Assembly: GCF_044704955.1 (NCBI RefSeq)
Contig: NC_091980.1
Span: 129,394,001-129,458,000, forward strand
Direction: 5' to 3'
DNA from: Pristiophorus japonicus
Lineage: Eukaryota
Length of the DNA: 64,000 nucleotides
The translations under genes were made by a program, and so were the position numbers. This document shows, one piece after another, positions 48,010 through 57,428 of this stretch. Under the pieces are notes generated by a model. The model saw nothing but the letters and a program-made list of their open reading frames with translations. It did no database searches and was not told the origin of the DNA. Position 1 is the first letter of the stretch. Each line of letters starts with the position of its first letter.

Positions 48010-49875
48010 TCAACATGTCTGAATACCTATCATAGATTGGTATTATGCAATGAGAAGGGATTAATTAATAGTGTTTTTGTGTGGGGTCCTTTAGGGAAGA
48101 ATAATCATAACATGATTGAATTTTTCATGAAGATTGAAAGTGAAGTTGTCCAATCCAAAACTAGGTCCTAAATCTAAACAAAGGAAACTACGAAGGTATG
48201 AGGAATGGTTATGATAGATTGGGAAGAGTCATTAAAAGGCATGATGGTGGATAGTCAATGGCTAACATTTAAGGAACGAATGCATGAATTGCAACAATTA
48301 TACATTCCTTCCTGCTGCAAAAACACAAAAGGAAAAGTGGCCCAACCATGGTTTACAAAAGCAATTAAGAATAGTATTAGATCCGAAGAGGAGTTATACA
48401 AAGTTGCCAGAAAAAGTAACAAGCCTGAGTATGGAGCAGTTTAGAATTCAGCAAAAAACGACCAAGAGATTGTTTAAGAGGGGGAAAATAGTATCTGAGA
48501 CTAAACTTGCAATGATCATAAAAACCGACTGTAAAGGTTTCTCCCAGTATGTAAAAAGAAAAAGATTAGTGAAGACAAATGTAGGTCCTTTTCAGTCACA
48601 AATGGGATAATTTATAATGGGGAACAAGGAAATGGCAGAACAATTAAATACCTCGGTTCTGTCTTCACAGAAGAGGACACAAATAACATCCCAGAAATGC
48701 TAGGAAACTAAGGGTCTAGTGACCAAGAGAAATTAAAGGAAAGGATTATTAGTAAGAAAACAGTGCTGGAGAAACGAATGGGACTGAAAGCTGATAAATC
48801 CCCAGGGCCTGATAATCTGCATCCCAGAGTACTAAAAGTGGTAGCCATGGAAATAGTGGATGCATTGGTTATCATCTTCCTAAATTCTACAGATTATGGA
48901 ACAGTTGCTGCAAATTGGAGGGTGGCACATGTAACCCCACTATTTTAAAAAGGAAGGAAAAAGAAAACAGGTAACTGCAGCCCGGTTCACCTAACATTAG
49001 TAGAATGTGATAAAGGGACTCTTAGAAAATATCAACGGGATTAGACAAAGTCAATATGGATTTACGAAAAGAAAATTGTGTTTGACAAACCGACTGGAGT
49101 TATTTTTTTGAGGATGTAACTGAGATTAGATAAGGGGGAACTAGTGGATGTCGTGTATTTGGATTTTCAGAAGGCCTTTGATAAAGTCCCACAAGAGGTT
49201 AGTGTGCAAAATTAAAGAACATGGGATTGGGGGTAATATATTGCTATGGATTGAAAATTGGTTAATTGATAGAAAACAGTTGGAATAAACAGGTCTTTTC
49301 CTGGGTGGTGGGTGGTGACGAGTGGGATACCACAGGGATCAGTGCTTGGGCCACAGCTAATCACATAAATAGAAACTACACCTGGTGTATTGTGCACAGT
49401 TTTGGGTCTCCGAAAGAGCGCAGCAAAGTTCCACCAGACTGATCCCTTGGATGGAAAGATTGTCATGTGAAGAGAGAATAGCTTGACCAGGCCTGTTCAC
49501 CAGAAGAGTGAAAGGGGATCTTATTAAATCATAAAATTCAGACTGGTTTGGAGAAATTGGATGTGGGGAGGAAGTACCCCTTTGCTGGGAAGTGAATAAA
49601 AAGTGACAGGCTCAGAATACGAGGTAGGAAATTTAGCGCAGAGATGAGAAATGTTTTCACTCAGGATGGGGAAGCTGGGGAACTATTGACTACAGAAGGC
49701 AGTGGAGCCCAATTGCTGAATATATTTAAGAAGATACGATATCTTGATACAAAAGGCATCAGGGGCTATGGGGTACAAGCATGACATGGTGGTGGTAAAG
49801 TATTAGTTATCATATTTAATGGTGGTGCAGTCCTTAAAGAAGGACCAAATGGACAACAACTGCTCTTTATGTTTT
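48010..49875 (+). mobile_element. CR1 LINE ORF2 fragment
   Basis: [32 protein letters not shown] and GIPQGSVLGP motifs. Confidence 0.8.
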
Positions 49876-50436
49876 TGTGAATATAACTCAATATATTGAA
49901 ATTACGCCAGCAAAGAGCAAAATTATAGGACTGTTAACACTGGCAGAAGGGATGAGAACCTCCAGACACAAATTTAAGACAATTGGTAGAAGAACCACAG
50001 CTGACATGAGGATAAACTTTTATGCAGTGAGTGGTTAATATCTAGATTGCACTGCTCGAGAGAGAGTGGTGAAGGCAGTTTCAATCATAGGATTGAACAA
50101 GTACATGAAGGAAAAACATTGCAGGGATACAGGGAAAATGCAAGGGAGTAGGACTAGCTGAAGTGTTCTTGGAGAGCCAGCTGAGTGGTTACAGCACAGG
50201 AGGCCAATGTATGATTGTTGCATAGCCTAGTGCAATACTTATGCTGCAAACAAGTTATGGTAAATGGAAAATAAGCAACTTGCAAGGAGACAAAACCCAG
50301 TCCAATATTGAACAGTTTATTTACAGTTAATTACATTTCACATCAAGAGCCCAGGTCTCAGCCTGTACAAAGCCACCATTCTATGTAGGACAGAGTCTCA
50401 CACACATTGTATAAACATGAGTACTGATCAGAAGCT

Positions 50437-53400
50437 TCAGTCACTCTCCCCCAGAGTGTGCTTGTCAAACAGGTACTCTCCCAAGCCATTCTCAAGGGCT
50501 CCCAGTCTCTTCAGGTTGGTGATGTGATCGCCAAGCTTCTTGATCATCTTCACTTGTTTATCCAAGTAGTTGGTCTTCAGGAAGTCACACAACTGAAGGA
50601 GGAACAGAAAGGAGTTATGGCCAGTAGCAGATATCAAGGAACATTGGAGCTTACTGCTTGAGAGTTTGAATTTTAGTCCTCTTGGACTGAGGATAGTTCA
50701 GTGGTGCAATTGAAATTGATGGAATTACTGCATCATTTCGATGAAAACTTGCTATACAAAAAGGAGCTGGGATCAGACACTTACAATATCTACCCTAAAA
50801 TAGACCCAACACAAAGCTATTGGGCACAGAGATCTTTTTAAATTAAGTCCAAGGACAGCAACTTACCCAAAAGCCCACATTGAAGCATTAGGAACTTACA
50901 TGAGGGTCAGTGCTCCCAGTGGAGAGTTTGTGCAGATCCAACAGACTCTGGTTCACATTCTTCTCCATTTGTAGAGCTCTCTGCATGACCTCCAGACCAT
51001 TGCTCCACTCATCCTGCTCTGGTTTCTGAAGAGAAAAGTCAGATTAAAACAAACAAGTATTTTTTGTCTTTAGATGCTCTGATAATGACTCCACGAGGCA
51101 ATGTATTGTACATTAACTGTATTGACCCTAGTGCGTTTAATGGAACTCCAGTGGTGAGGATCACACCTGGTGGCCTGCCACACCTGTGCAGGTAACCTGC
51201 AAGTCTGACTGCAGTGCCCTGTAGTGGCATATATGCAATACTACAAGCAGTAAAAACAAGTTTGGAAATAGGACCGTATTGAAGGAAATTAAGGATAAAA
51301 AAATGCAATCGGAAGTCTAGGTTACCATGAAACAATGTTTTAAAATATTGAATTACTGCATTAAGTCAACTACTGGTGTCAAATTTATGAGGTGAATAGC
51401 ATAGATGTATTTAAGGGGAAGCTAAATAAGTACATGAGGGAAAAAGGATTAGAACGACATGTTGCTGGATAAAGCAAGGTGGGAGGACAACATCTGGAGC
51501 CTGATCACCAGCATGGACCAGTTTGTCCAAATTGCTGGTTCCTGTGGAATTGGAACCAACTCCTTTACAATGTATTGTGAACAATCAGTTTAAGGGGAAC
51601 CAAACAGAAGGGCCCTCGTTTATGGAGCCAAACCTTGATGTCTGCCAAGATGATTCGGCCTCCACGCCGATTCTGGAATTGCATCAGTTTCTCAGCATGC
51701 TCACGTTCCTCATGTGACTGCTCCTTGAAGAACTCAGCAAAGTGACGCAGGGCAACATCATCCCGGTCAAAGTAGAAGGACTGCGGAGTGATCAGAAGAG
51801 TAGTTGATTATTGCATGGCAGACCCATCATGGGCACTGTACATGAAGCCAAACTCATGTTTCTTGTTTTAAGGGCTCAGTCTCACTGAACTTATGTATAG
51901 TTATGGAAACTAGCACCTACTCAAGTAACCTGGTAAAGATATTGGATAATCTCAGCTCCAGCCATAGGGAAACTTAACATGAGAAATATGAACAGGAGTA
52001 GACCACACAGCTGAGCCTGTTCCACCATTGAAGATTATGGCTGATCTGGTCATGGACTCATCCCCACCCATTCCCACATAACCCTTTAGCGTTTAAGAAA
52101 CTATTACAGTCTTAAATTTATTCAATGTCTCAGCTTTCCACAGCTGAGGCAGCAAATTCCACAGATTGACAACCCTCAAGAAATTTATCAGTTCTAAATG
52201 GGCAGCCCCTTATTCTAAGATCATGCCTCTAGTTGTTGTCTCCCCCATCAGTGGAAACATCTTCTGTATCCACCCAGCCATGCCCCCTCAATCTTATACA
52301 TTTCAATAAAATCACCTCATTCTTCTGAATTCCAATGAGTAGATGCAGCCCCCCCACCCCCCTCCACTCCTGCTGTACTGTGGCACTTAGCAATCTTGCT
52401 CCATTTAAATAAACATTTGCTCTTTGATTTTTTTTTTTTGCGCTAAAGTGCATGACCTCACTTTCCAATAGTCACATTTTTGCCCACTCACTTAGCCTGC
52501 CTATGTCCTTTTGCAGAAGTGTGTTCTCCTCACACATTACAGATACAAAGTTGGGAGGAATAGCAAACTAGGCTACGTTACCGAATTGGAAGGAGGGACA
52601 GAGTGTAATATATAGATTGTAAACAGTTGGGGTCCCAGCACTGATCCCTGCAGCACTCTACTGGATACTGGTTGCCAACCAGAGAATGAACCATTTATCC
52701 TGACTCTGTTCTTTAGCCAATCCTCTATCCATGCTAATATATTACCCCAAAGCCTATGAACTTTCATCTTGTGCAGTAATCTTTTGTGGCAACTTGTCAA
52801 ATGCCTTCTGGAAGTCCAAATACACCACAGCCACTGGTTCACCTTTAACCACCCTGTTTGTTACATCCTCAAAGAATTCCAGCAAATTTGTCAAACACTA
52901 CTTCCCTTCATAAATACATGCACACACTGCCTGATCAAATTTTGCTTTTCCAAATGTCCTGCTATGTTAATAATGGAAACCAACATTTTCCCCGTCACAG
53001 ATTAGACTAACTGGTCTATAGTTTCATCCTTTTTATAAAAAAATAGGGGCATTACATTTGCAGCTTTCCAAACTGCTGGGAGCTCCCCAGAATCCAGGGA
53101 ATTTTAGTAAATTACAACCAATGCATCCACAATCCCTGCCGCTACTTCTCAAGACCCGAGGATGCAAGGCATCAGGACCATTTATCTGCCTTTAGCCCAA
53201 TTATCTTACTGAGTACGACCTCCTTCGGTGATTGTTACTGCATTAAGTCCCTCCCCCCTATAGCCCCTTGACTATCCATCATTGGAATGTTGTTACTCTC
53301 CTCTACTGTAAAGACAGATACAAGATATTTGTACAGATTTTCTGCCATCTCTATGTTGCCTATTACTAATTTCCCAGTCTCATCCTCTTGTGATTTAGAA

Positions 53401-54689
53401 AAATCTGCAGACTATGGAAATATGGAGTTGTATCACTCCACCCAACATTCAGCAAGGCACAATGGACTGAATGGCCTCCTGTAGTGCATCACTCCATGAT
53501 CACCAATTCAGCTTTGGTTGAACAGGCTTAAAACTGGAACATGAATCTTGGCACCCAATATTCATTGCAGCTCTGGAAATTAGTGAAGGAATTGCCACAA
53601 GATTTATACCCTGGTCACCAGTAGCATGTTCCAATAATAGTTTATTAACCCAAATACATTTTGTACAGGCTAGTTGAGGGGGTAGTATTAGAAGTCAAAG
53701 CAACTTCCAAAACTAGAGATCTAGTCACAGTGCAGAATTCATATGTATGAAAAAAAAAGTGAAGAACTAGCTGAATTTTACTGGCTACAATCATGCCAAG
53801 GAACTAAAACTACCACAAGCAGCATTAATTTGGCACACAGTCTATACCAAATCAAAGCATTGTAGAGGAGAACCAGAGACCACAGAATAAAAGTTTAGAG
53901 AACCCCTCAAAATTTGAGGTGCTTGGTGAAGGTCACAGGGGTTAAGGGAGTCCACTGAGTACAGACAATTGATGATTAACTTTCTTTGCTGTATTGATGC
54001 TAAAAGCTAGGGGAAAGACAGAATGATACAAACTGGTATTTAAAATTAAGAGGTTAGAAACACTTGGAACAGGAGGGAAGCAGAAACATTTGTAACACTT
54101 TCTTCCCATCCTCCCCCTGTGGAGGTGAGGGATGGCTGGGAAAGAAAGTGTTTCAGATTTCCATCTGGGAAAGAATACTTCCTGACATCCCTCCAAAAAA
54201 ATACAGCGAGGCCATTTATGACATCACCCATTGAACCAGCAAGGTAAGGAAAGTCCATGGAGTGATTTAGAATGAGGATACAAATTCTGAATTCCTTGCA
54301 TTGTGTGCAGAATATATTCCAAATAAACTTCATCAAGCTCAAGATCCCAGGAAAAAGAAAGATAATCAGATAATACATTTGCTGCAAGGAACAGAGAGAA
54401 TGTTAATAAATTCAAATTAAGATAAATTGTATCATATTATAGCTTTAAAAGTGAATTCAATGCATAGATTCAGTGGGGTGGGGGTGGGGCAGAAAGAGAG
54501 AAATAGGTGGGCTGAGTACAGCACAGGATTTCATAAATTTACATTACAAAGTCTCCATTGTGAAGTGGCAAAAAACACAAAACTCACCATAGAGATATAA
54601 ACATAGGAGGAATAGAGCTCCATGTTGATCTGCTTGTTGACAGCATGCTCACAGTCCTGGTGGTAATTCTGACACACTTGGGAAGCCAT
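50437..54689 (-). CDS. Ferritin heavy/middle-subunit-like protein, copy C2, intact ORF with altered channel residues
   Basis: Exons 54689-54588, 51780-51634, 51025-50900, 50592-50437, GT-AG, open frame. Exon 4 reads [23 protein letters not shown] at 54772-54765 and AATAAA at 50321-50316. Confidence 0.88.
51975..53390 (-). mobile_element. CR1 LINE fragments in intron 1 of C2
   Basis: [26 protein letters not shown]; paralog of 17600-19015. Confidence 0.78.
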
Positions 54690-54759
54690 CTTAATATTTT
54701 ATTTTTCCAAAGTAAAAACTTTGTAGAAGTACAAAGGTAACATTTCACCAAACTCAAAC

Positions 54760-54935
54760 TCCTTTATTTATACTGAGGGATAATCCAGGGTGTGGCACTC
54801 TTGATGATGAGTGACAGTCATCAATACCCAATCAGAAGTTGCATCTTCTCAGAGCACCAATCAAGTAAAGGGAGGAGGGAGATGGACTCCCAGAGTCAGT
54901 CAGATCTTTGAAGAATGAACATCATTGGCTGATTT
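54760..54935 (-). promoter_or_regulatory. Proximal promoter of C2
   Basis: TATAAATA at 54772-54765, CCACACCC at 54795-54788, paired CCAAT boxes. Confidence 0.6.
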
Positions 54936-55945: not shown

Positions 55946-57428
55946 CATCATCATAGGCAGTCACTCGGCATCCAGGAAGACTTGCTTTCACACCTAAAGT
56001 GAGTTCTTTGGTGGCTGAACAGTCCAACATGAAAGCCACAGGCCCTGTCACAGATGGGACAGATATTCATCGGGGGAAGGGGGTGGGTGGCACTGATTTA
56101 CCACATGCTCCTTCCGCTGCCTGACCTCTTCACGCTCGCAGCGTTGAGATTCGAAGAGCTCAACGCCCTCCCGGATGCACTTTTTCCAACTAGGATGGTC
56201 TTCGGCCAGGGTCTCCCAGGCATCAGTGGTGCTGTCGCAGGGAGGTTTTGAGGGTGTCCTTGTAACGTTTCCACTGCTCAACTTTGGCTCGTTTGCCATA
56301 AAGGTGTTCCGCATAGAGCAGTTGCTTAGGGAGTCTCATGTCTGGCATGTGGACTAAGTGGCCTGCCCAGCAAAGCTGATCACATGTGGTCAGTGCTTCA
56401 ATGTTGGGGATGTTAGCCTGCACGAGGATACTGATGTCGGTGCGTCTGTCCTCCCAGGGAATTTGCAGGATCTTACGGAGGCATCTTTGGTGATATATCT
56501 CCAGCGACTGGTGTGCCTTCTGTAAGTCGTCCATGCCTCTGATCCATGCAGTAGGGTGGTATTACTGCAGCCCTGTAGAGCGTGAGCTTGGTGGTAGGTT
56601 TGAGGGCCTGGTCTTCGAACACTCGTTTCCGCAGGCAGCCGAAGGCTGCACTGGTGCACTGGAGGCGATATTGAATCTCCGCATCAATGTCTGCCTTTGT
56701 TGACAGGAGGCTCCCGAGGTATGGGAAGTGGTCCACGTTTTCGAGGGCCACGCCGTGAATCTTGATGTCTGGGGGTCGTGCTGTGCGACGAAGACAGGCT
56801 GATGTGGACATTTGTCTTAAGGATCTTAAGTGCAAGGCCCATGATTTCATATGCCTCGGTGAATACATCGACTATATCCTGGAGTTCAGCCTCAGAATGT
56901 GCGCAGACGCAGGCGTCGTCCGCATACTGCAGTTCAACGACAGAGGTTTGGGTGGTCTTGCACTGGTCTGGAGAGGGCATAGGTTAAACTGCTTCTCACT
57001 GATTCTGTAGTTTAGTTCCACTCCAGCAGGGAGCTTGTTGACAGTAAGGTGGAGTTGGCAGCGAGAAAGATTGAGAAAAGCGTTGGAGCGATGACGCAGC
57101 CCTGTTTGACCCCGCTTCGGACGTGGAACGGGTCTGTAACAAATCCGCTGATAAGGATCATGGGCTGCATGACGCCGTGGAGCAGGCGAAGGATGTTGAC
57201 AAAGCTTTGGGCGTATCCAAAATGGAGGTAGGACGCACCATAAGCCCTCACAGTCGACAGTCTCAAAGGCCTTTATAAGATCGAAAAATGCCATGTATAA
57301 GGGCTGGCACTGCTCCCTGCATTTTTCCTGCAATTGGAGTGCTGCAGAGATCATGTCCGTTGTTACCCGTAGGGGACGAAATACGCACTGTGACTCCAGG
57401 AGGAGCTCCTCGGCCACAGGGAGAACAC
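55946..57428 (-). mobile_element. RTE-clade LINE, duplicate of 21597-23088
   Basis: Same motifs, same truncation point and same flanks. Confidence 0.88.

Follow-up and report, generated by a model that had tools for sequence, protein, structure and literature searches.

In frog M ferritin, residues D127 and E130 (131 and 134 in human H numbering) lie in the 3-fold pore, and E136 and E57 are given as transit sites in the available text of PMC10114856. Alanine variants have been made at three of the corresponding positions of mitochondrial ferritin. D131A lost rapid oxidation, E134A left mineralization unchanged (80 vs. 79) and slowed Fe2+ binding (1.7 vs. 3.0), and E140A slowed both (mineralization 29, Fe2+ binding 0.76), according to the available text and Table 3 of PMC12022971. 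Multicopy ferritin-heavy-like genes have also been described. The hadal snailfish carries a 14-copy tandem expansion of fthl27, presented as a deep-sea adaptation and proposed to buffer reactive oxygen species (PMC10746142, available text). Mammalian FTHL17/Fthl17 genes are multicopy, evolve in concert and are expressed in the germ line, and FTHL17 is reported there, citing Ruzzenenti 2015, to be unstable and without ferroxidase activity (PMC5363321, available text).

We analyzed a 64-kb stretch of Pristiophorus japonicus DNA (the window; G000:C4:129,394,001-129,458,000), in which six-frame motif scans and exon mapping located seven ferritin copies, all on the minus strand. One of them, C2, has an open frame of 176 codons over four exons with AG/GT intron ends. 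Its TATA box (TATAAATAAA) lies at 54763..54772 and its polyadenylation signal, AATAAA, at 50316..50321. Exon 1 (54588..54689) comprises the ATG and codons 1-34 and holds E27 and Y34; exon 2 (51634..51780) holds E57, E61, E62 and H65; exon 3 (50900..51025) holds E107 and H118; and exon 4 (50437..50592) holds C130, D131 and Q141, all unchanged, and the stop codon. C2 thus keeps E27, Y34, E62, H65, E107, Q141, H118, C130 and D131. We found no disabling lesion in its ORF, splice sites or core promoter.

C2 reads K134/N136/K140 where all six other copies in the window read E/H/E. The changes are E134K in the 3-fold channel (codon 50575..50577, GAG>AAG at base 50577), H136N (codon 50569..50571, CAC>AAC at base 50571) and E140K at the transit site (codon 50557..50559, GAA>AAA at base 50559), each a single-base change to A, and all inside 19 nt. 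Two further changes are private to C2: E71Q in exon 2 (51679-51681) and P161L in exon 4 (50494-50496). Human H numbering equals the codon number plus 3, as established by alignment of the paralog C5 (public protein P0197) to human H chains. The original prediction had described the same triple, the same numbering, and an intact ORF, splice sites, TATA box, polyadenylation signal and set of ferroxidase ligands, and our codon comparison bore it out on each of these points. The short 5' UTR of C2 contains a hairpin (54713-54730) whose 7-bp stem is perfect and whose loop is 4 nt long; by Rfam and by its loop sequence this hairpin is not an iron-responsive element (IRE). By eye, we also noted decayed, apparently LINE/reverse-transcriptase-like fragments at 48500-49500, 52500-53400 and 56000-57400, between genes and in C2 intron 1.

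The C2 product has a ferritin domain and about 176 residues and is colinear with solved H/M chains, as judged from C2 exon 4 and paralog C5; C5 aligned with bullfrog M (PDB 1mfr) over residues 1-175 (E 6e-83). C2 resembles the vertebrate M/H' subunits (annotated as 'middle', 'higher', 'heavy chain A/B' or 'oocyte isoform'-like) in its E27/E62/H65/E107/Q141 site and its four-exon gene, and the ferroxidase ligands of H/M-type ferritins are all present. It differs from them in K134 and K140 and in having no IRE that we could find. The acidic 3-fold channel (D131, E134) and transit residue E140 are thus only partly kept, with D131 retained and lysine at the other two positions. C2 is predicted to behave as an H/M-type subunit with a damaged entry path. 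At position 57 the array to which C2 belongs carries Glu instead of the His of human H, and length and E57 together suggest orthology to M/H'. A PDB search scored human H slightly above frog M, and deep nodes were poorly supported in a 37-protein tree built without an FTH1 or frog M reference. Residue 144 is Met in the majority of the array and Ala in human H, and in frog M it is the ferroxidase ligand D140 (PMC10114856, Table 1). Nearly every copy sampled has this Met, which adjoins the ferroxidase site; the C2 codon is at 50545-50547.

The other copies in the window are in varied condition. C1 (62393..63446) has exons 2-4 in an open frame, with exon 1 outside the window, in locus L211. C3 (40128..46048) is intact, carries T135A and encodes a protein identical to public P0131, and C5 (16013..20333) has an intact ORF whose protein is identical to P0197. 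Copy C4 (33043..35564) is a pseudogene with two frameshifts and a stop in exon 3, C6 (8352..11855) has lost the exon-4 acceptor at its usual position and has an altered TATA box, and C7 (2573..5113) is a pseudogene with a stop at codon 29. Half of the six copies that C2 is compared with (C4, C6 and C7) are themselves broken. The seven neighbors are the wrong baseline for judging C2; the window samples an array of about 300 genes.

The ferritin genes of that array, about 300 in number, stand in tandem and have introns. The array spans G000:C4:127,780,000-133,360,000 in a 5.9-Gb genome, and the window is a small part of it. Genome-wide pattern counts gave 321 exon-4 and 298 exon-3 matches; among the first 100 listed of each, all but one exon-4 match and two exon-3 matches fall in the array. 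A search with C2 exon 4 gave 386 candidates, and the 150 that were scored were all on contig C4, at 127.8-133.4 Mb. A further exon-3 match was seen on contig C1 at 388,828,248. For comparison we used 147 gene models, comprising 140 loci picked by exon-4 match and the seven window copies; picking in this way biases the sample toward intact exon 4 and toward K variants. All four exons lay within a 7-kb stretch in 121 of the 147. Among these complete copies, 51 were disabled and 70 had no disabling lesion, with exon-4 indels and stop loss not counted as disabling. An iron-handling residue was changed in 23 of the 70 undisabled copies and a ferroxidase ligand in seven.

For the 135 copies that have exons 2-4 we built a tree and mapped 1667 coding changes on it by parsimony. 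Nonsynonymous and synonymous changes (N/S) numbered 579/290 on the all-broken branches; intact tips had 252/240 and internal branches 148/158. Omega on intact tips was about 0.26-0.4, depending on the transition/transversion weight. On branches no longer than 0.015, N/S was 81/27 in all-broken lineages, which is the neutral ratio, vs. 53/61 in intact tips. The array evolves by birth-and-death under moderate purifying selection: it has many tandem copies, lineage-specific clades, frequent pseudogenes and relaxed rates in dead copies. Its nearest named proteins are sawshark entries labeled 'ferritin heavy chain B-like' or 'higher subunit-like'. We retrieved 254 public relatives, 22 of them identical to one of the 147 gene models; the spliced C2 protein was absent from the set.

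Tandem duplication of a ferritin-heavy-like gene recalls snailfish fthl27, at about twenty times the scale (about 300 vs. 14 copies; PMC10746142, available text). A habitat-specific explanation is unneeded for the sawshark array because many of its copies are dead and expansions occur across sharks. Other sharks have many ferritin copies among the members listed of mixed-species clusters (180, 127 and 69 members; per cluster, 40 members were read and 15 listed). A search of literature listings, mostly of openly available papers, turned up no account of such an array in sharks; the array copies are annotated automatically in public databases. The main text of the whale shark genome paper (PMC8455134) mentions ferritin 0 times.

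The K134/N136/K140 triple occurs in two of about 320 copies, C2 itself (L001) and a twin (L075) 260.7 kb away. The two are 99.9% identical and differ at five positions and by one 15-nt indel over about 4.8 kb. The twin sits in a 260.7-kb direct duplication that is about 0.1% divergent. This may reflect either very recent copying or the double placement of one haplotype. Such arrays are often collapsed or misassembled, and with a doubly placed haplotype the three letters could come from a faulty assembly or consensus, or from a variant private to the animal that was sequenced. We consider this highly improbable. A random base-call error is unlikely because the twin, despite differing elsewhere, has the same three letters. 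In addition, an exact 56-nt contig over the C2 L161 codon is present in DNA run X3, which may be from the assembly's source sample; among the loci compared, that 56-nt stretch occurs only in C2 and the twin. Gene conversion from a K/N/K donor was also considered and rejected, as the triple is found in no third copy; a short converted tract could in principle still have carried K134 in from a neighboring lineage.

The sister of C2 is L088, which reads E/H/E and has introns 1.6% different from those of C2. It belongs to a block duplicated in inverted orientation, with a divergence of about 1-2%; this block and the direct duplication lie around the window, at G000:C4:129.0-129.8 Mb. Comparison of the two sequences indicates that the triple arose after they split. 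Since then the stem leading to C2 has accumulated five nonsynonymous changes (E71Q, E134K, H136N, E140K and P161L) and no synonymous ones, while L088 has three silent changes, no amino-acid changes and a 1-nt insertion directly before the stop. Noncoding changes polarized over 4202 columns numbered 24 on the C2 stem and 32 on L088, with 12 ambiguous; noncoding divergence on the C2 stem is about 0.7%. From 24-36 noncoding changes, neutrality predicts about 2.8-3.0 nonsynonymous changes on the stem (P for five or more, 0.15-0.19). An omega of 0.35, the average constraint of the array, predicts about one (post hoc P of about 0.004). C2 thus seems to have escaped constraint, at a rate not measurably above neutral. 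The same 5/0 count is also expected under positive selection, with a point estimate of omega of about 1.8 that is not significant; five events give the rate test little power, and gene conversion confounds the tree. The original prediction had proposed dN/dS of C2 against C1 as a check. That value is 0.22, and it comes from the wrong comparison because it mainly measures older history common to the two genes. We rejected it as a test together with the pairwise value for C2 and L088 (0.30), since both blend the C2 branch with constrained history.

Together, these results suggest that the triple is recent and most likely the product of unselected drift in a redundant, intact copy of the array. 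Constraint on C2 would be relaxed in one of about 300 redundant tandem copies, many of them broken, and with all three changes being to A within 19 nt, a single clustered mutational event may be their source. Counting against drift, C2 has no lesion, keeps its TATA box and polyadenylation signal, and was recently duplicated intact (L075). The original prediction had offered early pseudogenization on one hand and a gating or non-iron subunit on the other. Of these, the former, taken as early decay or relaxed constraint, fits best. The gating or non-iron role gained no positive support: the triple marks one recent lineage, its rate is compatible with neutrality, and the single changes also occur in pseudogenes.

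A stronger form of relaxation is that C2 is already a silent, untranscribed pseudogene whose ORF is intact only through youth. Its neutral-like branch would fit, as would the roughly 40% of sampled copies that are dead, and the intact TATA box says little because 39 of 55 broken copies also have one. We nevertheless think this unlikely, given the lack of any lesion in the ORF, splice sites or promoter core; C2 also matches its conserved sister L088 at every one of the 140 nt directly before the ATG.

The position of the three changes could instead point to selection, with C2 and its twin forming a tuning or gating subunit in which K134 and K140 throttle cation entry into mixed cages, or one shifted to a non-iron or antioxidant role. 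Three of the five private changes fall on the entry path. Using mutation weights from the array's own spectrum and an eight-codon entry set chosen after seeing C2, the probability of at least three of five changes in that set was 0.0006 for one branch. However, the sample has 131 non-broken branches that carry amino-acid changes, and the probability that any of them would do so was 0.07 for the eight-codon set and 0.39 for a 15-residue iron set, in a sample of less than half of the array. C2 was the only sampled non-broken branch with three hits, in both sets. Three-codon clusters within 19 nt were expected on 2.5 non-broken branches and observed on six, and differences between 26 close copy pairs (exons 2-4 plus introns) were clustered 2.2-fold over random (41 vs. 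18.7). With a small per-branch probability and an array-wide one of 0.07-0.39, the C2 cluster is mildly unusual and not significant.

Also in favor of a selected subunit are the intact gene signals of C2, the absence of silent changes on its stem, and the recurrence of K134 in three lineages here and five other species. The carpet-shark T135R, in 33 of 67 proteins, would be another positive charge beside the channel. We still regard selection as quite improbable. The lineage is very young, its branch rate is not above neutral, and the triple is confined to two copies and is absent from the public relatives. Mitochondrial E134A mineralizes as the wild type does (80 vs. 79; PMC12022971, Table 3), and C2 keeps the critical D131.

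Drift in a redundant copy, the reading we favor, also agrees with how often the single changes recur. K134 is found in 12 array copies from three origins, one of which includes a pseudogene (L097); the two lineages other than that of C2 have it in three and six intact or nearly intact copies. Six copies (L076, L078, L212, L213, L214 and L216) combine K134 with a loss of 2 nt close to the stop, which leaves the chain a few residues shorter, and they form inverted pairs with exon-3 fragments between them. K140 is present in at least six copies, namely C2, its twin and four others, two of which are broken (L201 and L205). N136 is present in five copies in the genome, and the three besides C2 and its twin (L174, L202 and L203) are all broken. 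We counted 39 E>K events over 18 Glu codons, most often at E71 (14), E177 (5), E57 (4) and E62 (4). In this K-enriched sample, E134K and E140K have three inferred origins each. Silent non-CpG G>A sites average 2.26 events, and the two lysine changes are no more recurrent than silent G>A changes.

The original prediction had also suggested looking for K/N/K in related species. It occurs in 0 of the 254 public relatives, a set that includes no congeneric genome. K134 alone is present in five other elasmobranch species, and K140 in one sawshark protein only. Sites 134 and 140 normally matter, because unselected proteins of other sharks keep E134 in 65 of 67 cases and E140 in 67 of 67. T135R was seen in 33 of these 67 non-sawshark proteins (carpet sharks, P0157-P0254), a lineage-wide positive charge beside the 3-fold channel.

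The original prediction held that E134K, H136N and E140K together would hinder cation entry. The structural roles it assigned to E134 (3-fold channel) and E140 (transit) are supported by the available text of PMC12022971 and PMC10114856, and slower entry is a reasonable prediction. H136N, though, probably does no harm: of 120 representative relatives, 11 naturally have N136, including members of a second shark ferritin clade and turtles. D131 is kept. The mitochondrial ferritin variants share positions with C2 and differ from it in being single alanine changes in homopolymers, where C2 has two lysines together (PMC12022971, available text). Lysine at 134 and 140 is expected to be more harmful than alanine, and iron loading of a C2 homopolymer would therefore probably be slow, with the catalytic site retained. 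In such a cage, lysines would line the 3-fold channel, the E140 relay would be lost, and Fe2+ would be slower to reach an intact ferroxidase site. FTHL17 is a precedent for a ferritin that has lost ordinary iron function (PMC5363321, available text); unlike it, C2 retains all ferroxidase ligands, has changed very recently, and belongs to an intron-bearing array of hundreds.

Mixed cages would dilute such an effect. Two C2-type genes are among about 170 undisabled ones, a number extrapolated by applying the 58% seen in a biased sample to about 300 genes. With equal expression assumed, about 3-4% of channels would hold at least one C2 subunit. Because of that small fraction, selection would barely see the variant.

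Among the sequencing runs listed as matching the C2 exon 4/3' UTR stretch, none is on record as RNA. At 98% likeness, DNA runs X1, X3 and X4 (one sample) gave no contig over 50559-50605, and X22 gave no contig. At 88% likeness, the letters listed for X22, X23 and X1 at 50559 and 50571 matched the E/H majority. Contigs drop variants and the filter removes some, and these letters neither confirm nor refute the C2 letters or its expression. Contigs from X22 and X23, runs of unrecorded kind that carry the same species label as the best DNA runs, are joined across intron 3. Some array-type copies therefore appear to be spliced, and a processed retrocopy could give the same join. Retrocopies of this kind exist: L204 (G000:C3:216,270,519-216,271,014) is an intronless, broken, processed retrocopy of an array gene, and L203 (G000:C17:124,770,514-124,770,679) is a broken retrocopy with exon 2 joined straight to exon 4. 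These intronless broken copies point to past germ-line transcription of array genes. Germ-line expression is reported directly for FTHL17 (PMC5363321, available text), and for the sawshark array we infer it from retrocopies only.

Cytosolic vertebrate ferritin mRNAs usually carry a 5' IRE. Rfam gave 0 IRE matches in the window, and an IRE-like hairpin was seen in 0 of 125 upstream 300-nt regions, C2 included; an upstream non-coding exon could nevertheless carry one.

C2 illustrates that a striking substitution in an active path can arise by drift among hundreds of redundant copies, and the variant itself matters little. The array, apparently without an IRE and expanded in other sharks too, is of more interest. 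If it is indeed undescribed, it raises the question of why sharks would require such a quantity of iron-independent ferritin, perhaps in germ cells. Its copies also amount to a naturally occurring collection of mutants at ferritin channel and ferroxidase residues. A broader proposal would be that sharks run a germ-line-expressed, IRE-less array that builds mixed cages, in which channel-lysine subunits (K134/K140, the K134 lineages, T135R) and E62N/E57G subunits are selected to tune iron uptake and release; we find this quite unlikely. One clade of four intact copies (L177, L179, L181 and L184; G000:C4:131.5-131.8 Mb) combines E62N, at a ferroxidase ligand, with E57G and R63L. By its residues, this clade has a better claim than C2 to being a candidate non-ferroxidase subunit.
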